A stretch of 64,000 nt of DNA from Candidatus Cloacimonadota bacterium (GCA_018645365.1 JABGOP010000001.1:171024-235023); one strand, 5' to 3'. Shown: positions 27,399 through 38,861, counted from the stretch's first letter. Notes: a model not told the origin generated them from the sequence alone. Numbers and translations: made by a program.

Positions 27399-28334
27399 TT
27401 ACTTTCGCGGCACTAAAACTCTTATTCTGTGGCGATGAAAAGTGATTTCTAAAGTAGATATAATTAACATAATTGCACCTAACATTTGAAAAAACGAAAG
27501 TGAATTTTTATTGATAAAAAAATCAAATAAAACAACTGAAAGTGGGAAGAAAAGCTCGCAAATAGAGGAAGCCATTGCCTTCACCTTTTTCAAACCAAAG
27601 TAGTAGAGGAAAACTCCGCTACCGCCAGTCGTGAGTGCGATAAGCAAAAAGAATTTCCCATTTTGGGTTGTGATATTTTGAAATTCGCCAATTTTTCCAG
27701 CAAAAATAATGTAAAATAACATTAAAAAAGCGGTAAAACCGAACCGATAAAAAGCAACTGTTTTAATAGAAAATTTTGTGAGTGCCGCTTTTCCTAAAAC
27801 GGTTGCACTACCAAATGAAATAGCGGCAAGAAGTGACCACAACGTGGCTTGAATGAGATTGGCATGTTTGTCTAGGCTTGGTGTTGCTCTGCCGAAAGTG
27901 AGAAAATAGCTGGCGAGAATAGCAACAATTGCCCAAACTACAAAATCTTCCCTAAGTCTTTCATTCAAAAATACGGCTGCTAAAATAATGGCAAAAACAG
28001 GTTGTAGTTTTTGGATAAGCACAATAACGGATAAATGGTCAAATTGCGTTAAAGATAGTGCTTTAATGATTGCCATTGTTCCCAAAGAACCGCCAAACAG
28101 TGCAATTCCGAAAAGGAGTAAAAAATCATTTTTGCGGAAAGATTTCAACTTTTTGTATTCCTTAAAAAGAAAAAGATTCATTAATGAAAATGGTATTAAG
28201 TGTAACATGAAAACAACGAAGCCAATATCAAGGTTAAAAAATTTTGGGGTGAATACAACTCCGTCTAATCCCCACATTGTGGCGGCAAGGATTATTGCTA
28301 ATGCACCCACAACTTTTTTATGATAACTATTCAT
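27399..28334 (-). CDS. EamA/DMT-family transporter
   Basis: About 10 predicted TM helices arranged as two similar halves. Length is 311 aa. Confidence 0.7.
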   Translation of the reverse strand: MNSYHKKVVGALAIILAATMWGLDGVVFTPKFFNLDIGFVVFMLHLIPFSLMNLFLFKEYKKLKSFRKNDFLLLFGIALFGGSLGTMAIIKALSLTQFDHLSVIVLIQKLQPVFAIILAAVFLNERLREDFVVWAIVAILASYFLTFGRATPSLDKHANLIQATLWSLLAAISFGSATVLGKAALTKFSIKTVAFYRFGFTAFLMLFYIIFAGKIGEFQNITTQNGKFFLLIALTTGGSGVFLYYFGLKKVKAMASSICELFFPLSVVLFDFFINKNSLSFFQMLGAIMLIISTLEITFHRHRIRVLVPRK

Positions 28335-28391: not shown

Positions 28392-30605
28392 TTAAATCAT
28401 TTCGCCGGCAAATTTTTCGCCGTTACGCACGAATATGGTTGTTTTTAATTTATCCGAAAGCTCGATCAATCTATCTGCATATTCGCTTTCTTCATTTTCG
28501 AGAGGTAAATTCAATCCCATAAATACTAAATCTGCGTCTTTGCTATGTTCATGAATGATTTCCGTAATCGTATTTTCATTTGATTTGACGATGATTTTAG
28601 GTTCCGCTTTGATGCGTACTTCACTAATCATTTCATTCAAATTTTTCAGCATAAATTCGCGATCTTCTTCCATTAAAATAACGGTATGAATAATGACATT
28701 TGCGTTTTTCCACTCGTTATTTAGCGTGAGTAAGTGTGCCAAAAGAAGCATCAAGTCCCCGTTGCTGTGTTTTCCACGCCACCAAAGGTCTATTCTGTTT
28801 TTGGTGGAAAACTCCATGGTTTCATTCATACGAACCAAAAGTGAGCTTTTTTGTAACTTGGAAACGGATTGCACAATTTTCAATAGTGAAACAATGCGTT
28901 CTTTTGAACCAGCCCAACTGAGCATTATGGTATTTGAATGTAGTCCTGCGATGCCGTTTGCTTGCGTAATGTTGGCAACTCCGCTTTCAAAACGAGCAAC
29001 GATATTTATTTCATTGAATGCGTTAATGCCTTCTTTTTTGAGGAGCATATTCATCTGTTGTGTTTCATTTTTAATGTCTGTTTTATTGGTTTTCAAATTA
29101 CCGATTTTCAAATTACAAACAGTCAAAATTCCGCGTCTTTGATTTAGGTAATTGGCTAATTTAATCAAAGGTAATCGTTTTTTGATGTCATCTGCAAAGA
29201 CCAAAATATTTGGTCGCCAATTTCGTGGAGCCTCTTTGTGTTGCTTTAATTTTAGCAATGCGAACCTTGCTAAGCTTCCCCAAAATCCGGCTCGCACATC
29301 TCCCCATTCATTTTTCATCGTGCGGCGTTGCAACAGTAAAAAGAGTGCAACTTCAAATAAAATCCCCAAAACGCAAGCAAGTGGACTGATGAGGAACATC
29401 ACCGCGATGGCACCAAATGACCCCAATAATGAGATAAACCAAGGCACTTTGATTTTGGGACGATAAGATGCATCACCGGTTAAATTTTCTAAAGCAGCAC
29501 TGAAATTTATCATGACATAAAGGGTGAGAAATAAGATAGAAACAAATTGGGCAACCGTGTTTAAACCACCCAACATTACAGCGATTAATGCTATTCCGCC
29601 GCTTATCCATGTGGAAATTGTTGGTTGACCTGTTTTGGAAAGTTTAGCTAAAAATTTGGGAGCTAAGCCATCTTGTGCGAGTGATTGTAAAACTCGTGGA
29701 CCACCCAAAATACTTCCAAAGGCGGAAGATAAGATTGCACCAAAAATTCCAGGAACAATTAAAATCCCGCCAAGAAAGGCAATTTTACTCCAAGTTTTTA
29801 CACCAGTATTTGCTAAATCTTCTGGAAGCATTTTACCTGTAATTGAAAGAAAAACAGGAATCATTAGGTAGATTAATGTTCCGGAAACAACCGCCAAAAG
29901 AGTTCCTTTGGGGATTGATTTTCGTGGATTTTTTAAATCGCCACTCATACCAATTCCAGCAGTAAAACCAGTAACTGCCGGAAAAAAAACAGCAAAAACA
30001 TACCAGAATCCTTTTGGTGCGGTGCGATAGGTAGCAATCATTTCTGGTGCGTGCAATTCTCCCAAAAAAATGCCAATTAAAAGAGCAACAATGGATAATC
30101 CAACTGCGATTAAAATTGGGACTTGCAGTTTCAAAACTAAACTAGCACTTTTTCCTGAAATAAATGTAATGAAGATGATGATGGCTGCTGTAATTATTTG
30201 AATTATGTATGTTGACATTTCACCCAAAGACGCAGGCCAAAACATGGCGATAGTTTCCGCTAAACCAAAACTGTAAAAGGTAATGCTGAGAGTTCTACAC
30301 AAATAGAGAGGAATTCCGATTGTGCCACCTAATTCCAATCCTAAACTGCGCGAAACCATAAAATATTCCCCGCCCACACCAACACTCATATTGGTAGAAA
30401 TTGCGGAAGCACTTAACGCTGTTATAAAGGTGATAGAGCTTGCCAAAAGCACGATGAGTAGCGTGAGTGGTAGCCCAACATTACCCACAACCCAACCAAA
30501 ACGAAGGTACATAATGAGACCCAAAATGGTAAGGACACTGGGCGTGTAAACGCCCAAAAATGTCCCAAATTTTTCTACAACAGGTAAATTATTTTTATTT
30601 TCCAT
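28392..30605 (-). CDS. APC-superfamily permease of the cation-chloride-cotransporter (SLC12)-like type with a large cytosolic C-terminal domain
   Basis: N-terminal roughly 470 aa are polytopic (FGTFLGVYTPSVLTILG, GMSGDLKNPRKSIP, typical of CCC/APC). The C-terminal roughly 260 aa are soluble. The gene starts 14 nt after the thiolase stop. Confidence 0.65.
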   Translation of the reverse strand: MENKNNLPVVEKFGTFLGVYTPSVLTILGLIMYLRFGWVVGNVGLPLTLLIVLLASSITFITALSASAISTNMSVGVGGEYFMVSRSLGLELGGTIGIPLYLCRTLSITFYSFGLAETIAMFWPASLGEMSTYIIQIITAAIIIFITFISGKSASLVLKLQVPILIAVGLSIVALLIGIFLGELHAPEMIATYRTAPKGFWYVFAVFFPAVTGFTAGIGMSGDLKNPRKSIPKGTLLAVVSGTLIYLMIPVFLSITGKMLPEDLANTGVKTWSKIAFLGGILIVPGIFGAILSSAFGSILGGPRVLQSLAQDGLAPKFLAKLSKTGQPTISTWISGGIALIAVMLGGLNTVAQFVSILFLTLYVMINFSAALENLTGDASYRPKIKVPWFISLLGSFGAIAVMFLISPLACVLGILFEVALFLLLQRRTMKNEWGDVRAGFWGSLARFALLKLKQHKEAPRNWRPNILVFADDIKKRLPLIKLANYLNQRRGILTVCNLKIGNLKTNKTDIKNETQQMNMLLKKEGINAFNEINIVARFESGVANITQANGIAGLHSNTIMLSWAGSKERIVSLLKIVQSVSKLQKSSLLVRMNETMEFSTKNRIDLWWRGKHSNGDLMLLLAHLLTLNNEWKNANVIIHTVILMEEDREFMLKNLNEMISEVRIKAEPKIIVKSNENTITEIIHEHSKDADLVFMGLNLPLENEESEYADRLIELSDKLKTTIFVRNGEKFAGEMI

Positions 30606-30619
30606 CGATGCCTAAAATT

Positions 30620-31822
30620 TTAAACTTTTTCAAGTACCATAGCGATACCTTGTCCAACACCTATACACATTGTACAGAGTGCCATTTTAGAATTTGTACG
30701 CTGCAATTGATAAAATGCTGTCGTAACTAATCTTGCACCGCTCATTCCAAGAGGATGCCCGAGTGCTATTGCACCACCGAGTGGATTTATTCTAGGATCA
30801 TCATCTTTAAGACCAAATTCCCTAGAACATCCTAACGATTGTGAAGCAAAAGCTTCATTAAGTTCGATAATATCTATATCATCAAAAGTTAGACCTAAGC
30901 GTTTTAGGAGTTTATTAGTAGCCGGAACAGGTCCCATTCCCATTATGCGTGGTGGAACACCAGCTACATCCATTCCAAGAATTCTAACTTTTGGAGTTAA
31001 TCCATGTTTTTTTACAGCACTTTCCGAAGCTATAATTAAAGCTGCAGCACCATCATTAATGCCGGAAGCATTGCCAGCAGTAATTGATCCGTTTTCACCA
31101 GTAAGAACTCTTAGTGTTGCCAATTTTTCTGGTGATGTAAGTCTTAGATGTTCATCTTTATCAAATATGACTGGATTACCTTTACGTTGAGGAATAGAAA
31201 CAGAAACAATTTCTTCTGCCAGTAAACCATTCTCTTGAGCATCATTGGCTTTCTGCTGGCTCCAATGAGCAAATTTATCTTGATCTTCACGACTAATATT
31301 ATGCTCTTTTGCTATGTTTTCTGCAGTCATTATTAATGGATCGGTACCAAATTTCTTATTGAAAATCTTATTTACAAAACGCCAGCCAATAGTTGTATCA
31401 TGCACTTCTGGTGCTCTTGAAAATGCTGCTAAAGGCTTTCCCATAACATAAGGAGCTCGTGACATACTTTCGATTCCACCAGCAATTATCAAGTCCGCTT
31501 CACCTGCTTTAATTGCTCTGACAGCAGTGCCTATTGCATCCATCCCCGAACCGCAAAGTCTGTTTATTGTCACCCCAGGAATAGCTTCTGAAAATCCAGC
31601 AAGTAGGGAAGCCATTCTGGCAACATTACGATTATCTTCACCTGCCTGGTTTGCACACCCCATAAGGATATCATCAACTGCAAGCCAATCAACATTAGGA
31701 TTTCTTTTCATGATTTCTTTTAGTGGGATTGCACCCAAATCATCCGGTCTGATAGATGAAAGACTACCGCCATATCTTCCTACAGGAGTTCTAATTGCAT
31801 CACATATAAATACATCTGTCAT
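30620..31822 (-). CDS. Thiolase, closest by eye to 3-oxoadipyl-CoA thiolases (PaaJ/PcaF type)
   Basis: FICDAIRTPVGRYGG, GCANQAGEDNRNVARMA, active-site NRLCGSGMDA, DTTIGWRFVN, GNASGINDGAAA and C-terminal CTMCIGVGQGIAM. The long identities are to E. coli PaaJ as I remember it. Confidence 0.8.
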   Translation of the reverse strand: MTDVFICDAIRTPVGRYGGSLSSIRPDDLGAIPLKEIMKRNPNVDWLAVDDILMGCANQAGEDNRNVARMASLLAGFSEAIPGVTINRLCGSGMDAIGTAVRAIKAGEADLIIAGGIESMSRAPYVMGKPLAAFSRAPEVHDTTIGWRFVNKIFNKKFGTDPLIMTAENIAKEHNISREDQDKFAHWSQQKANDAQENGLLAEEIVSVSIPQRKGNPVIFDKDEHLRLTSPEKLATLRVLTGENGSITAGNASGINDGAAALIIASESAVKKHGLTPKVRILGMDVAGVPPRIMGMGPVPATNKLLKRLGLTFDDIDIIELNEAFASQSLGCSREFGLKDDDPRINPLGGAIALGHPLGMSGARLVTTAFYQLQRTNSKMALCTMCIGVGQGIAMVLEKV

Positions 31823-31837
31823 AAATTTTACCTCAAA

Positions 31838-33184
31838 TTATATATTTTCTAGTTCTGATTTTATTAGTTTGAAACCATTGAGTATTGCCGCTGAAAGTAT
31901 ATCAACTTCCTTTTGTTTAAGAGCTGTTGAAAACATGCAGGTGCAAGTGTTAACCATCATTATTCTTTCATTAATAAAAAGATAATCGAGTAATTTTTTT
32001 ATCAATAATGTTTTTTCTTTAGTTTGGAACGCTTCGCGGTAAGTAGTTGGTGGTGTTGCTGTTAGGTGAATGCGGAACATTGAGCCTGCACCAGTAATGG
32101 AAACAGGAACATCTGCAATTTTTATCGCTTCTTTAATTTGACTGATTGCTTTTTGAGTTAAGGCATTTAATTTTAAAACAGCATCTTCATCAAATAATTC
32201 CATAGCAACACGTCCTGCAGTCATGGTTATTGGGTTTGCAGAAAAAGTACCAGAATGAGGGAAGAGTAGTTTACTTTCGCTTGGATCGAGCACTTTCATA
32301 ATATCACCCCTTCCAGCAAGAGCTCCAACGGGAAATCCGCCACCTATCATTTTTCCCATTGCGGTAAGGTCTGGTTTTACTGAATAATTATTTTGTGTAC
32401 CACTATAATTTACACGTAGGGTCACTACTTCATCAAATACTAGCAATGCACCATTTCTACGAGTCCAATTGTACATAGCTTCTATGAAATCAGAATGTGC
32501 TTGGATTAGTCCTACTCTGTGTGGAACAGGATCGATTAAAATGCAAGCTATGTCATTAGCATGTTGATCTAAAATTGCAATAGTTCTTTCAATATCATTA
32601 AAAGGAAAAATAATAACATCATCCAAAACTCCTTGCGGAGTGCCGTTTGCCAGCGGAACACTGTTGGGATTATTTATATCACCCCAATTTGAAGGATTAG
32701 CAGTTTGGCTAATTTCGGCAAAATCATAAGTGCCGTGGTAAGCTCCTTCTGCTTTAGCAATTTTCGGTCTACCTGTATAAGCTCTAGACGCTTTTATCAT
32801 TGCCATTACTGCTTCAGTACCCGAGTTCATAAAACGGATTTTATCAAAAGTTGGTACTCTATTACACAGTAATTGGGCAAAAGCAACTTCAGCTTCAGTT
32901 GCCATAGTGTAGGCAGTTCCTTTTCGTAATTGTTCGGTGACTGCATCAACGATCTGCGGATTTGCATGACCATGGATTAAAGATGCCATATTATTAGCGA
33001 AGTCTATTCGCTGAACACCATCAATATCGTTTACGTAGCACCCAGAAGCACTAGAAACATAAAACGGATGCGGTTTCCTAAAGATAGTATTTCTGCTTAC
33101 GCCACCAGGAAGCACATTACAAGCTTGTTTATAAATCTCTTTACTTGAATGTTTTTGTTCTGTTGAATTAATATTATTATTCAT
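31838..33184 (-). CDS. Class-III PLP aminotransferase of the glutamate-1-semialdehyde-aminomutase-like branch
   Basis: LPGGVSRN, MNSGTEAVM, and the PLP-lysine context DLTAMGKMIGGGFPVGA that parallels GSAM. Confidence 0.8.
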   Translation of the reverse strand: MNNNINSTEQKHSSKEIYKQACNVLPGGVSRNTIFRKPHPFYVSSASGCYVNDIDGVQRIDFANNMASLIHGHANPQIVDAVTEQLRKGTAYTMATEAEVAFAQLLCNRVPTFDKIRFMNSGTEAVMAMIKASRAYTGRPKIAKAEGAYHGTYDFAEISQTANPSNWGDINNPNSVPLANGTPQGVLDDVIIFPFNDIERTIAILDQHANDIACILIDPVPHRVGLIQAHSDFIEAMYNWTRRNGALLVFDEVVTLRVNYSGTQNNYSVKPDLTAMGKMIGGGFPVGALAGRGDIMKVLDPSESKLLFPHSGTFSANPITMTAGRVAMELFDEDAVLKLNALTQKAISQIKEAIKIADVPVSITGAGSMFRIHLTATPPTTYREAFQTKEKTLLIKKLLDYLFINERIMMVNTCTCMFSTALKQKEVDILSAAILNGFKLIKSELENI

Positions 33185-33223: not shown

Positions 33224-33880
33224 TTAATATTGATGCAGTTTTGCACCAGTATTTTGCTGTAGATATTCAAAAGTAACATCAGGTGCAAGTTCTCTTACAA
33301 AAAGACCTTTATCTGTAACATCGATTATAGCAAGATTACTATAAATTCTATTAACAACCCCTTTTCCAGTGAGGGGATATGTACATTCTTTAATTATTTT
33401 AGAATCACCATGTTTAGTGGTATGCTGAGTTATAACAAATATTGTCTTCACTCCCGCAACCAGATCCATTGCTCCACCAACAGCTGGGATGGCACCAGGT
33501 TTACCTGTTGACCAATTAGCTAAATCACCTTCTTGGGAAACCTGCATGGCACCTAAAACACAGATGTCGATATGACTTCCGCGGATCATTGTGAAGCTGT
33601 CTGCATGATGAAAGAAACAAGCACCAGGAATAGCAGTTATACATTTTTTCCCGGCATTAATTAATTCGGGATCTTCCTTGCCACTCTCTGGAACCTGACC
33701 CATACCAAGTAAACCATTTTCTGTATGATAAATAACTTCTCTTCCATCGGGTACGAAATCCGCAACTAATTCTGGCATACCAATTCCAAGATTTACATAA
33801 GATCCATCGGGAATATCAAGAGCAGCTTTTTGTGCCATTTGATTTCGATCCCAACCAATTTTCTTTTCTGTTATCGACAT
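33224..33880 (-). CDS. 3-oxoacid CoA-transferase, subunit B
   Basis: 218 aa. The catalytic-Glu region is HTENGLLGMG. There is a 10-nt overlap with subunit A. Confidence 0.85.
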   Translation of the reverse strand: MSITEKKIGWDRNQMAQKAALDIPDGSYVNLGIGMPELVADFVPDGREVIYHTENGLLGMGQVPESGKEDPELINAGKKCITAIPGACFFHHADSFTMIRGSHIDICVLGAMQVSQEGDLANWSTGKPGAIPAVGGAMDLVAGVKTIFVITQHTTKHGDSKIIKECTYPLTGKGVVNRIYSNLAIIDVTDKGLFVRELAPDVTFEYLQQNTGAKLHQY

Positions 33881-34587
33881 GGATACCTCCTGTCTTCAGC
33901 AACGAGTTTAGATTCAGCTTCGGGATTTGTAACTTCTATAACTTTTGTTACAAAGATTCCAGGAGTGACTACGATTTCTGGGTCTATCTCACCGGGTTCG
34001 ACTATTTTTTTTGTCTGAACAATTGTTGTTTTGGCAGCAGTGCACATGATTGGACCAAAATTTCTGGCAGTTTTATGATAGGTTAAATTTCCATATCTAT
34101 CCGCAAGATTACATTTTACTAATGAAAAATCTGCTTTTATTGCATATTCCATAACATAAGTTTTACCTTCAATAATACGAATTTCTTTTCCCTCGGCAAG
34201 TGGAGTATTTACAGAACTTGGTGTAAAAAAGGCAGGAATACCTGCACCTCCAGCTCTGATGCGTTCTGCAAGTGTTCCTTGCGGAACAAGCTCAAGTTCG
34301 ATCTCGTTTTTATAATACAAATCTGGAAATACTGTAGAATTAGCAGTTCTTGGAAATGAACAAATCATTTTTTTTACTTGCTTATTCTCAATAAGTGCTG
34401 CAAGTCCGACATGACCGCTTCCGGTATTATTACTCACAACAGTAAGGTCTTTTGCACCATGATCTATTAATGCATGAATTAATTCTATGGGGCTGCCTGC
34501 TTCTCCGAACCCGCCAATTAAAACAATAGCTCCGTCAAAAATATCAGCAACAGCTTCTGCTGCTGAATTTACAATTTTATTAATCAT
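33871..34587 (-). CDS. 3-oxoacid CoA-transferase, subunit A
   Basis: 238 aa with IGGFGEAGSP, VSNNTG and QGTLAERIRAGGAGIPAFFT. Confidence 0.85.
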   Translation of the reverse strand: MINKIVNSAAEAVADIFDGAIVLIGGFGEAGSPIELIHALIDHGAKDLTVVSNNTGSGHVGLAALIENKQVKKMICSFPRTANSTVFPDLYYKNEIELELVPQGTLAERIRAGGAGIPAFFTPSSVNTPLAEGKEIRIIEGKTYVMEYAIKADFSLVKCNLADRYGNLTYHKTARNFGPIMCTAAKTTIVQTKKIVEPGEIDPEIVVTPGIFVTKVIEVTNPEAESKLVAEDRRYPCR

Positions 34588-34618: not shown

Positions 34619-36226
34619 TTATTTTTTTAATCTTTTTTCTAAAGTTTCCTGAAGAGCATCTTCTTTGTTTTTTAAATCATCTTCGTAGAAATGTTTATCT
34701 GTATCAAATGGTTTAAGATTTGCAATTGTGTTTTCTTTCTCATCATATTTTGTTAGGAAAACCTTATCTAACCATTCCATATTTCTAGCTTCGTTAAATT
34801 TTAAAGCAAATGCTGTTTTGCCGTTCACTTCAACTGTTCCCAATAAAGATACTTTTCCTGCTGAAGATGTCATGGTGATATATCTTGATGGACGGTTTAT
34901 TGAGGGTAGGGAACGGTAAACTTTATTGAAAACTCTATTTATGTCTGCAAGTGGGACAGTGAAATAATGATGTTCACCGGTTGGTCGTGCACAATACATA
35001 GAATGAAATCCAATAGACAATATTGCAAGAATGTTGCCTAAATCTATCCAGTTTTGAGCAGAGCGTTCAACATCAATTTTACCATTTTCATCAGTGAATA
35101 AGCTGATGTGATTCATTATGGGACTCTGGCTTTTAATGACTACTCCCGCAGCTCTAAGCCTACGGACTGCTGCAATTGTGCTAATGTTCAAAAGTTCTTT
35201 TGGAGTAGAAATATGAGCCATCCACACAACTTGAATTCCATTGTTGTTTAGTTTTTTAAATAAATCTAACATATTGTTATAATCATTACTTAAAATCATT
35301 TCTGGAGAAAAAGTAAGAGCCCTAGTTCCAAGACGCAAAGTTCTAATGTGCATAAGGTTTGGGTTTTCAATTAACGGCAGAACATATTGTTCTAACCTCT
35401 CAAAACTCATTTTACTAGCATCTCCACCGGTTATGAGTACATCAGTAATCTCTTTATGTAGTGCTAAATAATTATGAACTTGTTTAATCTCTCTCTGGAT
35501 GAACATATCTTCATCACCACGAACCTGAGCATGACGGAAGCAGTATGTACAGAATGCAAAACAGCTTTGTGTTGTTTTGTCAAAGAGAAGAATGCATTGC
35601 GGATATTTATGCTGACAACCATCAAGAATTTCTAATTCACCATCTTCATTTTTGAACCATGGTTTGTTTAATAGTTGCTTGCCATCATGAGGGTTTGTCA
35701 TTTTCATATATTCATCAATTATTGTTTTTCTTTCATCGTCAGATTTTGCTTCAGTATATAAATTAACTGTTTCGGCTTGTATCATTTCCAGTTGAGGAAA
35801 AACAAGTTGGAAGAGAGAGTCATCAGTAAAATTATTCCAATTTATTGTGTTGAGAACATGCTTGGTTGCCAAAAAGCGATAAACTTGAATAAAAAGCTCG
35901 CGTGCTTTGATATGTCCGATATTGATTCCACTTTTGTGTAATATTTCAACTATTTCTCTAAAACCGCTTAATCCTGCATAATGTTCTTTGCCAGTGAATA
36001 AAAATTTGGAAGACTCCATTATGTCTGAATGATGAGTAAAGCAGGAATGCAATCTTGATAACACACCAGCAGGCAGAAGATTTTCTTTCATAATATTCGA
36101 TTTTATATCATCAGAATAGTGATAGCGATCCATCATTTTTTTAACATCAGAAACCTGAATATCAATTTTTTTGACAGAATTTTTTGTGTCAGATTTCTCT
36201 TCTCTTGCGTTTTGAATTGTAGCCAT
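34619..36226 (-). CDS. KamA-family radical-SAM / PLP amino-acid 2,3-aminomutase-like protein, long form (535 aa)
   Basis: CFAFCTYC (Cx3Cx2C), DVLITGGDA, LRLGTRAL, and YCARPTGEHHYFTVPL paralleling KamA YQCDLSLGLEHFRTPV. The PLP-lysine context is SSAGK. There is an extra N-terminal region of roughly 130 aa. Confidence 0.75.
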   Translation of the reverse strand: MATIQNAREEKSDTKNSVKKIDIQVSDVKKMMDRYHYSDDIKSNIMKENLLPAGVLSRLHSCFTHHSDIMESSKFLFTGKEHYAGLSGFREIVEILHKSGINIGHIKARELFIQVYRFLATKHVLNTINWNNFTDDSLFQLVFPQLEMIQAETVNLYTEAKSDDERKTIIDEYMKMTNPHDGKQLLNKPWFKNEDGELEILDGCQHKYPQCILLFDKTTQSCFAFCTYCFRHAQVRGDEDMFIQREIKQVHNYLALHKEITDVLITGGDASKMSFERLEQYVLPLIENPNLMHIRTLRLGTRALTFSPEMILSNDYNNMLDLFKKLNNNGIQVVWMAHISTPKELLNISTIAAVRRLRAAGVVIKSQSPIMNHISLFTDENGKIDVERSAQNWIDLGNILAILSIGFHSMYCARPTGEHHYFTVPLADINRVFNKVYRSLPSINRPSRYITMTSSAGKVSLLGTVEVNGKTAFALKFNEARNMEWLDKVFLTKYDEKENTIANLKPFDTDKHFYEDDLKNKEDALQETLEKRLKK

Positions 36227-36239
36227 AATTGCTCCGATA

Positions 36240-37529
36240 TTATTTTATTTTTATAAATTTTTCTAAGTATTTAAAATCATCTTCCAATTTTCCGCGGTGC
36301 GTAATGCACGCTTTTTTAATTTCATCTGGCAGTGTTGAATCTGCGATTGATTTTGTGTAATCATTCAAAAGCATCTCTTTTATAAATGGCATTAATGCTT
36401 CCGAAAATGTATCAGACGCTTCTTTTGGGAATTCGCATGGAAGGTTGTCAACGGCACAATTAGCTATTCCATCACCAGCAAATCCATCGGTAATTTTACC
36501 CGTTTTTGGATTGAAAATAAAGGTGGAATTATCGGGATAAGTTGCTTTTAATGTAGCTTCTACTGAGCCACCAATATCGCAAGTGATATCACCGATAATG
36601 ATGAGTTTTTGCCATTTTTCGAGTTCGGCATTTCTCAGGAAAACAGGATAGCCCGGTGCCCAGTAAATAGCGTTCATATAAACGCTACAGTGTGGCAAGT
36701 ATTGCTCCATATTTGAAAGATATTTATCACCGTTTTGGAAATAATCTGAAAGCTCAAAGGGTTGTCCATCGGCGCGTTTTACCATATCTTTTTCTTTGAA
36801 AACCGTAAGATAAATCTTGTTGTTCTTGTGGTTTTTTGAATGTGCCCCTAATTGGTTTGGCTTTATCTCTATTATTGGTAATTTTGCCAAAATTTCTTTG
36901 CAACCGCTAGCCACATGACCATATCCCATCAGAAAAATATTAAGTGGAACAATCTCGTCAGGTAACCCAGTTTTTGCTATTTCTTTACCAATTTCACCGA
37001 TGTGTTCAATCGCTTTCTGTAAAGATTCGTATTCAAATGAACGCTTAATTTTCAAAAAAGGTGTATCTATTTTGAATTGTCGTTTCAACCTTTGACCCAG
37101 CCCCCAAAGTGTGTCCACCATACCTGCATCGCCGGCAAATTTCCCAAAAAAGACTAATCTGCGATTTTGAATATCTGCAATTTTTTCATAATCAAAAAGG
37201 GTAATGTTTTGGTCTAAAATATTTTGCAGAAGTGGCATGTTGTAATCTTGCCCTTTGATTGTGTGCGAAAAAAATAAGTGTGGTTTATTAGGAATTAAAT
37301 CATCAATAGGAATCTCTTTCACGCCGATAATTAAGTCACATTCCGATAAATCAGCAGAAATTTGAGCACCCACATTTAGGTACTCGTCATCTTTATAAAT
37401 CCGAATTTGGGAGGGTTGTACTATTACTTCAAAGCCGTCATTAACCAACTTTTTGACCGCTGTTGGATTTAGTGGAACGCGTCGTTCCCATTTATTTTTT
37501 GTCTCAATTTTTATGCCTAATTTTCTCAT
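36240..37529 (-). CDS. Lysine-ketoglutarate reductase-like (saccharopine dehydrogenase, L-lysine-forming; AASS N-terminal half homologue)
   Basis: By-eye alignment to the LKR half of animal AASS: NKWERRVPLNP, FFSHTIKGQDYNMPLL, LFDYEKI, GDITCDIGGSVE and VDNLPCEFPKEAS. Confidence 0.75.
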   Translation of the reverse strand: MRKLGIKIETKNKWERRVPLNPTAVKKLVNDGFEVIVQPSQIRIYKDDEYLNVGAQISADLSECDLIIGVKEIPIDDLIPNKPHLFFSHTIKGQDYNMPLLQNILDQNITLFDYEKIADIQNRRLVFFGKFAGDAGMVDTLWGLGQRLKRQFKIDTPFLKIKRSFEYESLQKAIEHIGEIGKEIAKTGLPDEIVPLNIFLMGYGHVASGCKEILAKLPIIEIKPNQLGAHSKNHKNNKIYLTVFKEKDMVKRADGQPFELSDYFQNGDKYLSNMEQYLPHCSVYMNAIYWAPGYPVFLRNAELEKWQKLIIIGDITCDIGGSVEATLKATYPDNSTFIFNPKTGKITDGFAGDGIANCAVDNLPCEFPKEASDTFSEALMPFIKEMLLNDYTKSIADSTLPDEIKKACITHRGKLEDDFKYLEKFIKIK

Positions 37530-37541
37530 TTATCTGTCTTC

Positions 37542-38861
37542 CTAAAAGAATTTTTCGATTAATTTAATGTTGAGGTTTTCAAGTTCAGCCAAAACGGGTT
37601 CATAAATTTCTGGGAGAGTAGGCATGTAAACGCCAGTCAAATTTATTTTGTTTTCCAAAATTATGCGAACAGCAATTGCCGCAGGCAAAGAGACCGTTCT
37701 TGCCATCGAACTGTCGCCGTTTGGAATTCCATAATCTATCATTGTGGATGTTATTTTTTGGGTTTTATTTGGATATTTAGCGACAAATTTATGATGTAGA
37801 ACAAGTAAATCTCGTTCGCCTTTTTCGTACGACATTTTTTCGAGCATAATGGCGGTGAGAACATCGATTGCTCCACCTTTTTTGATTGGAATTTTTGAGT
37901 CATCGAAAAAACCAAGCCACTCAAATTTTTTCAAGATAATGCCATTTTTGGAAAGATTAAATTTTTCTATTAAAAAAGTCTTAAGGCATTCACCTTTGTT
38001 TAATTTGAACATTTTAGTTAAAATAAATTCCTTCACGGTTCCTGTTAAATTCTCAAAAATTTCGTCCTCTTTATAGAACCCCATTTGCGATAACGTAAAC
38101 CATGTGTCGCAATGGCTAATATTTCGGAAGGTTCCTCTGTACATTGTTTTCACATCTTTCAAATTGTATAAATCAACGTAGTCTAGCGAGTTACGGTTTG
38201 GGTATGCTTCTAGGGTTCCGATGCCATCTACATCAACGAGCCAATAGTTAGCAAAAAGATTTTTACCCTCTACCTCGATAATTTCACCATTTTTCATATA
38301 TTTAGCGCCATTTCCAGCTGCCTTTAGAACACCCTTGGGAGCCCACGAAAATTTATATCCGAGTGGGTTTGTGTTTGCTTCTGGAGCCGGAAGTCCGCCA
38401 CAATAACTCATAAAGCTGATGACCTTTCCACCGTTTTCTTCCACTTGATGAAAAATTTTCATCGCACTCATGTGGTCTATACCAGGATCAACGCCAATTT
38501 CATTCAAAATAATGATGCCAGCTTTTTTTGCCGCTTCATCAAGTTGGCGCATTTCGGGACTAATGTAGGAAGCCGTAACCATATTTTTTTTATGCTTGAT
38601 GCATTTTTTGGCAATTTTTACATGAAAAATAGCTGGCAATAAACTAACCACAATGTCGCTATTTTGCACCAGATTGTCAAGCTCTTCAGCATTGTTTATG
38701 TTGAATTGAAAAGGGGTGGCGTTTGTGTGGTTATCGGTAAGTTTTTTTGCTTTTGAGAAAGCAATGTCTGCAACCGTAATTTCATAACCGTGTTTAGCTA
38801 AATAATCCACCATCGGTTTTACTACTAATCCCGCACCGAGAATAGTCACTTTTTTATTCAT
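37542..38861 (-). CDS. Saccharopine dehydrogenase (L-glutamate-forming; Lys9 / AASS C-terminal half homologue)
   Basis: VTILGAGLV Rossmann motif, MVTASYISPEM, GVDPGIDHMSAM, YCGGLPAPEANTNPLGYKFSWAP and LEAYPNRNS. Confidence 0.8.
   Translation of the reverse strand: MNKKVTILGAGLVVKPMVDYLAKHGYEITVADIAFSKAKKLTDNHTNATPFQFNINNAEELDNLVQNSDIVVSLLPAIFHVKIAKKCIKHKKNMVTASYISPEMRQLDEAAKKAGIIILNEIGVDPGIDHMSAMKIFHQVEENGGKVISFMSYCGGLPAPEANTNPLGYKFSWAPKGVLKAAGNGAKYMKNGEIIEVEGKNLFANYWLVDVDGIGTLEAYPNRNSLDYVDLYNLKDVKTMYRGTFRNISHCDTWFTLSQMGFYKEDEIFENLTGTVKEFILTKMFKLNKGECLKTFLIEKFNLSKNGIILKKFEWLGFFDDSKIPIKKGGAIDVLTAIMLEKMSYEKGERDLLVLHHKFVAKYPNKTQKITSTMIDYGIPNGDSSMARTVSLPAAIAVRIILENKINLTGVYMPTLPEIYEPVLAELENLNIKLIEKFF

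Follow-up and report, generated by a model that had tools for sequence, protein, structure and literature searches.

A 64,000-nucleotide stretch of a Candidatus Cloacimonadota genome (the window) encodes a 535-amino-acid protein that we think is probably a radical-SAM, PLP-dependent 2,3-aminomutase for L-2-aminoadipate. It would be the entry enzyme of an anaerobic branch of lysine degradation. Its gene lies between two saccharopine-pathway genes and a cassette for a CoA-transferase, an aminotransferase, and a thiolase (Table 1).

Table 1. Features of the window, in the order of transcription.
Feature	Position	Strand	Details
Saccharopine dehydrogenase (SDH)	37542..38861	-	First gene of the run; PF03435 and PF16653
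Lysine-ketoglutarate-reductase-like protein (LKR)	36240..37529	-	AlaDh/PNT fold; directly upstream of the aminomutase
Radical-SAM/PLP 2,3-aminomutase-like protein, probable 2-aminoadipate 2,3-aminomutase	34619..36226	-	535-aa ORF
Clade-specific N-terminal extension, residues 1-61	36044..36226	-	Disordered 1-16; helices 25-34, 39-47, 53-62
[4Fe-4S] motif C222-x3-C226-x2-C229 and R231 (KamA R134)	35534..35563	-	
Arg414, at the KamA Asp293 position	34985..34987	-	R in 78/78 clade rows; putative partner of the side-chain carboxylate
T451-M-T-S-S-A-G-K458	34853..34876	-	Thr at KamA Asp330; PLP lysine (K337)
3-oxoacid CoA-transferase A, PcaI type	33871..34587	-	TIGR02429, 343 bits over 128.5
3-oxoacid CoA-transferase B, PcaJ type	33224..33880	-	TIGR02428, 300 bits over 243.55
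Class III aminotransferase, β-transaminase-like, putative 3-aminoadipate transaminase	31838..33184	-	Arg31 in GGxSR
3-oxoadipyl-CoA thiolase PcaF	30620..31822	-	TIGR02430 equivalog, 660.7 bits over 597

The AlphaFold2 model of the aminomutase (pLDDT 87.6) has KamA, the lysine 2,3-aminomutase of Clostridium subterminale (2A5H), as its top Foldseek match. VIA-align superposes 333 residues of the model on 2A5H with Z = 27.6 and an rmsd of 3.5; the runner-up entry has Z = 11.8. As an earlier note on this DNA had described, the protein has the radical-SAM triad (CFAFCTYC, residues 222–229, on a partial TIM barrel), a GGD motif (267–269), and a PLP lysine within SSAGK, which is K458. The three cysteines are invariant. 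In KamA, K337 holds the PLP and R134 binds the α-carboxylate of the substrate, and the equivalent residues, K458 and R231, are present in all 78 aligned members of the clade. The 535-aa protein presumably catalyzes an amino shift, as predicted from the fold and the kept residues. Among the 1,564 homologs, the best 120 are 65–87% identical to the aminomutase; 118 of these 120 were alignable, with a mean column identity of 67%. The nearest relatives are labelled Cloacimonadota.

NCBIfam's KamA-type models match only residues ~197–375 of the aminomutase, and every score is far below the cutoff: 81.7 vs. 199.2 for TIGR00238 (KamA family), 67.1 vs. 525.4 for TIGR03820 (lysine 2,3-aminomutase), and 59.4 vs. 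650 for TIGR04368 (glutamate 2,3-aminomutase). The cutoff for the arginine aminomutase is likewise far above the score. The protein presumably has KamA-type chemistry; by these scores it is outside the lysine and glutamate families, and by its pocket it is outside the lysine family.

To compare the pocket with that of KamA, we used a joint alignment of 78 rows from the clade (80 loci minus two short ones), 28 KamA rows, and 60 + 11 sister rows. Residues were mapped to 2A5H via a Cloacimonadota KamA, whose alignment to 2A5H is gapless up to residue ~368; direct searches of the PDB, with the single sequence or with a profile, aligned the central barrel only. The aminomutase is just ~19% identical to 2A5H, but the clade retains the cluster cysteines (C222, C226, and C229, for C125, C129, and C132) along with R231 (R134), D269 (D172), R298 (R198), H338 (H230), Q367 (Q258), Y411 (Y290), and K458 (K337). 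Other positions differ: H131 of KamA is replaced by Tyr, R116 by Cys, and Y287-Y288 by His-Ser.

The most telling differences are at Asp293 and Asp330, which bind the ε-amine of lysine in KamA. Both are Asp in 28/28 KamA rows, and neither is kept in the clade. The loss of the acidic residue at Asp330, which the earlier note had pointed out, is borne out: the position is T451 (Thr in 71 and Ser in 7 of the 78 clade rows), and in an alternative register it is T453, which is also Thr (78/78). The note overlooked that the Asp293 column is Arg414 in every clade row. Arg414 is one of three invariant arginines close to the last strands, with R445 and R448. Glutamate 2,3-aminomutase replaces both of the lysine-binding aspartates by one basic and one neutral residue, and Ruzicka and Frey reportedly placed, in 2007, the basic residue at the Asp293 position. 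The clade has Arg and Thr (or Ser) at these positions; a search for a reference glutamate 2,3-aminomutase in five relatives found none.

Arg414 points to an acidic rather than a neutral side chain on the substrate. Of the earlier proposal that the substrate is not lysine and is either acidic or neutral, the first part is supported, as both aspartates are lost, one of them to an invariant Arg, and the family scores are so low; the neutral option is disfavored by the Arg. Arg414 alone cannot name the substrate as 2-aminoadipate or glutamate, because a sister family, without the cassette in the eight contexts checked, also has Arg there.

The aminomutase is 119 residues longer than 2A5H (416 aa), close to the excess of ~120 residues that had been noted before. 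The earlier note assigned this excess to an N-terminal extension of ~130 residues and gave it weight, but the extension is only ~60 residues long. The structural alignment begins at residue 71 of the model, which matches residue 3 of 2A5H (the aligned ranges are 71–485 and 3–391), and residues ~70–145, which were included in the 130, are the ordinary N-terminal domain of KamA. By counting from anchor residues, we found 61 extra residues at the N terminus and another 60 spread over internal insertions; the C terminus is 2 residues shorter. The offsets are +61 before T121 (T60 of KamA), +33 between P144 and G203, and +12 between Q367 and R414; small pieces contribute +15, and the part after K458 contributes −2. 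The three-helix extension has conserved residues (E48, L50, and R58) and, folded alone, has a pLDDT of 90. Against 48,161 PDB chains it had no structural match above Z = 4.0, which neither identifies the extension nor would demonstrate a new fold. It says nothing about the substrate.

In a quick tree, which came with long-branch warnings, the clade (SH-aLRT support of 100) is nested in an unnamed family of long KamA-like proteins and is far from KamA. These long proteins (~430–460 aa, from bacteria and fungi) are the nearest kin, at ~33–38% identity. Like the clade, they have a helical insertion and Arg at the Asp293 position (38/60 and 11/11 of the sister rows), but they lack the three-helix N-terminal part and the insertion at 375–393. 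We looked for a characterized member and found none, and none of the eight Cloacimonadota contexts that we checked has the cassette. KamA itself is a separate clade without the added N-terminal helices and insertions; the neighbors of the gene studied here are pcaIJF instead of lysine-fermentation genes.

In this wide sister family (L177–L189, L198–L205, and P0129–P0245), a GPSMS-x-x-PGK-like motif accompanies the Arg at the Asp293 position, and the genes are solitary in varied contexts. It is probably another acidic-amino-acid mutase. Some short KamA-family proteins of ~370 aa (L117:1504-2616 and L118:1498-2604) have Arg at this position too (FQCRP). KamA-like proteins in L113–L116 have both aspartates and score below the TIGR03820 cutoff; the next gene downstream is labelled, from its sequence, as a D-Ala-D-Ala-ligase-like ATP-grasp protein. 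P0124, a divergent sister of the clade (608 aa), has both the clade's N-terminal extension and its R414.

Downstream of the aminomutase, the 80 loci that we fetched contain CoA-transferase A (77), CoA-transferase B (76), the class III aminotransferase (74), and the thiolase (64). Among the 58 loci with at least 4,300 nt of downstream sequence, 57 have the order aminomutase-pcaI-pcaJ-transaminase-pcaF. The lone exception (L025:7399-10952) has a regulator, the aminomutase, and the transaminase, with no pcaIJ or pcaF in the locus. A gene labelled, from its sequence, as an XRE-type regulator with a cupin-like C terminus is upstream in 23/80 loci.

The PcaI-type subunit is 62.9% identical to a Rhizobium protein that is annotated as 3-oxoadipate CoA-transferase and whose context is IclR / CoA-transferase / 3-oxoadipyl-CoA thiolase. 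The thiolase is a PcaF equivalog by TIGR02430, and it matches the β-ketoadipyl-CoA thiolase 6PCA at 549 bits. Thus, the CoA-transferase and the thiolase are of the same types as in the lower β-ketoadipate pathway. There, the feed is ring cleavage, whereas here we propose an amino acid. Of the 50 cassette genomes that we searched (from 50 of the 80 loci), only 3 gave a match for an intradiol dioxygenase domain. Because the thiolase is a PcaF equivalog and so few carriers have the dioxygenase, the 3-oxoadipate needs a non-aromatic source.

The class III aminotransferase is below the HemL cutoff (342 vs. 527). It is nearest to 6K8H, which we take to be the β/γ-transaminase of Sphaerobacter, and to ForI, with HemL and β-transaminases next. 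Its R31, in a GGxSR motif, is found in 73/74 homologs and aligns with an Arg of 6K8H and not with one of HemL (3K28). In the β-transaminase of Variovorax paradoxus, the N-terminal R41 binds the substrate carboxylate (PMC9850050). R31 may be the equivalent of R41.

Cassette genes have a GC3 of 0.20–0.26, vs. 0.31–0.36 for the flanking genes. We set aside the idea of gene transfer, for which this is weak evidence: the values are at the 4th–23rd percentile of the genome, and the pattern is not repeated in four relatives. Promoter-like sites were not above chance. After pcaF, the window has genes for a cation-chloride-cotransporter-like permease (28392-30605) and an EamA protein (27399-28334). Between the permease and EamA genes of L005 (13741-17139) and L006 lies a gene for an SDH-family protein of 375 aa that is possibly lysine 6-dehydrogenase.

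The upstream genes suggest where the amino acid comes from. The name LKR is our assumption, from the protein's family and from the neighboring SDH. SDH and LKR precede the cassette in this window and in 4/80 loci (L001, L005, L006, and L007). In three other loci (L054, L065, and L080), the cassette is followed by an ALDH7-type aminoadipate-semialdehyde/P6C dehydrogenase (NF050084, 796 bits against a cutoff of 730) and SDH. More broadly, SDH is in 46 of the 50 cassette genomes, and we did not see it in the other 4. An ALDH7-type gene is in 27/50, but in none of the 6 Cloacimonadota. No aldehyde dehydrogenase was found in the genome studied here, which has two genes for aldehyde:ferredoxin oxidoreductases (AOR); a ferredoxin-linked AOR probably fills the semialdehyde oxidation step. 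We also searched this genome for canonical KamA and KamD and found neither. Canonical KamA is in 5 of the 50 hand-picked cassette genomes. Elsewhere, at L216:4663-8274 (G000:C27), an AOR gene is followed by genes labelled DapA-like and homoserine-kinase-like; that genome (G000) has LysA and no DapB match.

The textbook exit from 2-aminoadipate is transamination to 2-oxoadipate, followed by oxidation through glutaryl-CoA. The pathway proposed here has LKR, SDH and, in many carriers, the ALDH7/P6C dehydrogenase in common with saccharopine-type lysine catabolism, but its exit would be a β-shift.

In relatives without the cassette, a different module follows LKR. In seven of eight such SDH regions, the genes there are a CitD-CitE fusion, CitF, and one like homoisocitrate dehydrogenase; in the eighth, the contig stops within LKR. 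A homoaconitase-like gene is next wherever the fetched stretch extends far enough. This rival module (L190:2854-7355, L196:404-7779, and also L191, L193–L195, and L197) also encodes an unnamed protein of 181 aa, and its homoaconitase-like genes are fused. It is possibly a reverse aminoadipate (homocitrate lyase) route. It is below all of the NCBIfam cutoffs, and its best matches among PDB sequences are labelled isocitrate dehydrogenase; the module could instead act on citrate or isocitrate. Queries for CitF, for the LeuB/ICDH-family dehydrogenase, and for aconitase-family or homoaconitase proteins had no match in the genome that has our cassette.

We quantified this pattern in 201 Cloacimonadota genomes, in which we found canonical KamA in 119, SDH in 70, the rival dehydrogenase in 62, and the cassette in 7. 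SDH is present in every one of the 7 cassette genomes, and neither the rival dehydrogenase nor canonical KamA is in any of them; the rival dehydrogenase is in 59/63 of the other SDH carriers. Six of the seven appear to be L001, L002, and L004–L007 (coordinates and scores match), so these six are not added evidence. Within one genus, 5 of 12 genomes have the cassette and the other 7 have the rival dehydrogenase. The second sample was 251 genomes from the order of a chosen center (the Bacteroidales MAG G201), of which 18 have the cassette. SDH is in all 18, as compared to 129/233 of the others, and the rival dehydrogenase (109/251 overall) is in 1/18, as compared to 101/129 of the other SDH carriers. 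The Fisher p-values for both samples overstate the case, because related genomes are not independent. The anti-correlation recurs in two phyla, and one marker gene or the other is present in 66/70 SDH-bearing Cloacimonadota and in 119/147 SDH-bearing genomes of the Bacteroidales-centered sample. The exclusion is not strict: 13/50 of the hand-picked cassette genomes also have the rival dehydrogenase. The simplest reading is that the cassette and the rival module are alternative ways to dispose of one product of the saccharopine pathway. As a side observation, SDH and canonical KamA are mostly in separate lineages of Cloacimonadota: in family f3, SDH is in 0/88 genomes and a TIGR03820 match is in 87/88 (nearly all above the cutoff), and in family f1, SDH is in 45/51.

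From the observed gene, fold, residues, cassette order, and co-occurrence, we infer the substrates and the direction of the following pathway. LKR and SDH would convert lysine via saccharopine to 2-aminoadipate semialdehyde, which would be oxidized to 2-aminoadipate by an ALDH7-type enzyme in many Bacteroidota and probably by a ferredoxin-linked aldehyde oxidoreductase here. The aminomutase would convert 2-aminoadipate to 3-aminoadipate. As in KamA, SAM on the [4Fe-4S] cluster would give a 5'-deoxyadenosyl radical, while the PLP held at K458 carries the substrate as an aldimine and R231 grips the substrate's α-carboxylate. The radical would abstract a hydrogen from C3, and the amino group would move from C2 to C3. 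In place of the Asp that holds the ε-amine of lysine, R414 would bind the C6 carboxylate. The class III transaminase would then yield 3-oxoadipate, PcaIJ would activate it to 3-oxoadipyl-CoA, and PcaF would cleave that to succinyl-CoA and acetyl-CoA. With succinyl-CoA reused as the CoA donor, the net products would be succinate and acetyl-CoA. Methylmalonyl-CoA mutase was found in one of five genomes checked.

We favor the catabolic direction. The same enzyme could instead be biosynthetic, with succinyl-CoA and acetyl-CoA converted via 3-oxoadipate, 3-aminoadipate, 2-aminoadipate, and saccharopine to lysine, which would substitute for that half of the fungal-type pathway which runs through homocitrate. 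The module that is replaced does look like the upper aminoadipate pathway, LysA was not found in 4 of the 5 Cloacimonadota checked (G146, G183, G155, and the single-contig G033), and DapB had no match in this genome. But thiolysis is downhill and thiolase condensation is uphill, and ALDH7, which is operon-linked in three loci, is oxidative. Also, neither HisD nor IlvC was found above the cutoff in any of the 5 Cloacimonadota checked, and therefore these are amino-acid users. This genome lacks matches to the LeuB/ICDH and aconitase families, and the separation of SDH from KamA, a fermentation enzyme, argues against biosynthesis as well. Finally, of 4 cassette genomes from Bacteroidota, 3 have LysA above the cutoff and the fourth has it slightly below. 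Overall, a biosynthetic role seems unlikely. A similarly low probability attaches to another acidic substrate, either saccharopine, whose α-amine is free and which would become β-saccharopine before SDH acts, or a dicarboxylic amino acid such as 2-aminopimelate. R414, R445, and R448 could grip more than one carboxylate, this genome has no ALDH, and PcaF-type thiolases accept related dicarboxylic acyl-CoAs. However, the product of the operon-linked ALDH7 is 2-aminoadipate, SDH is unaltered in relatives with the rival module, and we saw no source of aminopimelate in the loci examined.

The earlier note had suggested 2-aminoadipate or glutamate, and gene context favors the former. Glutamate 2,3-aminomutase (from Clostridium difficile and from methanogens) is the same kind of enzyme with an acidic substrate, and the basic residue reported at its Asp293 position, together with the release of glutamate by the saccharopine route, would fit a pathway from glutamate via β-glutamate and 3-oxoglutarate to a CoA ester. 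The rival module would then be a citrate/isocitrate route for 2-oxoglutarate. We doubt this even a little more, given the TIGR04368 score (59 bits against 650) and a thiolase whose equivalog acts on a C6 substrate. Since glutamate is universal, the tie to SDH (25/25 cassette genomes in the two samples) would be left without an explanation, and the rival dehydrogenase has Ile at the position of Asn115 of E. coli ICDH. The roles reported for the glutamate enzyme (bioRxiv 10.1101/2025.11.21.689712) are glutamate fermentation and osmolyte synthesis, as opposed to the entry to 3-oxoadipate that we propose. Least probable is a divergent lysine 2,3-aminomutase whose β-lysine is deaminated at C3 and then cleaved via the CoA-transferase and the thiolase. 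Some databases do label homologs this way, and most carriers lack canonical KamA, but Arg at the ε-amine site would repel lysine, β-lysine 5,6-aminomutase was absent from the 5 cassette genomes checked (in which positive controls scored), and the tie to SDH would serve no purpose.

We found no description of a 2-aminoadipate aminomutase or of this route in the literature that we searched, which mostly lies outside subscription journals. Passages of PMC9081730, PMC6411801, PMC6522883, PMC9850050, PMC7228992, PMC2821294, and bioRxiv 10.1101/2025.11.21.689712, which concern lysine and glutamate aminomutases, EpmB, and β-transaminases, do not describe the clade. The known radical-SAM 2,3-aminomutases, going by NCBIfam's models, have lysine, glutamate, and arginine as substrates. 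A cultured bacterium, Ancylomarina salipaludis SHSM-M15 (L062), carries the cassette.

On balance, we lean towards the view that this is the first 2-aminoadipate 2,3-aminomutase, that the cassette and the reverse-homocitrate module are two interchangeable and hitherto undescribed anaerobic ways out of the saccharopine pathway, and that they form a second lysine fermentation beside the KamA route. If so, the radical-SAM 2,3-aminomutases would gain a new substrate and a new EC activity, and the presence of pcaIJF in anaerobes without ring-cleavage enzymes would be accounted for. 3-aminoadipate and 3-oxoadipate are of interest as precursors of adipate and nylon, and the aminomutase would link lysine to both of them enzymatically. 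In sediments and digesters, Bacteroidales and Cloacimonadota that degrade protein would have a short, oxygen-free pathway from lysine to acetyl-CoA and succinate.
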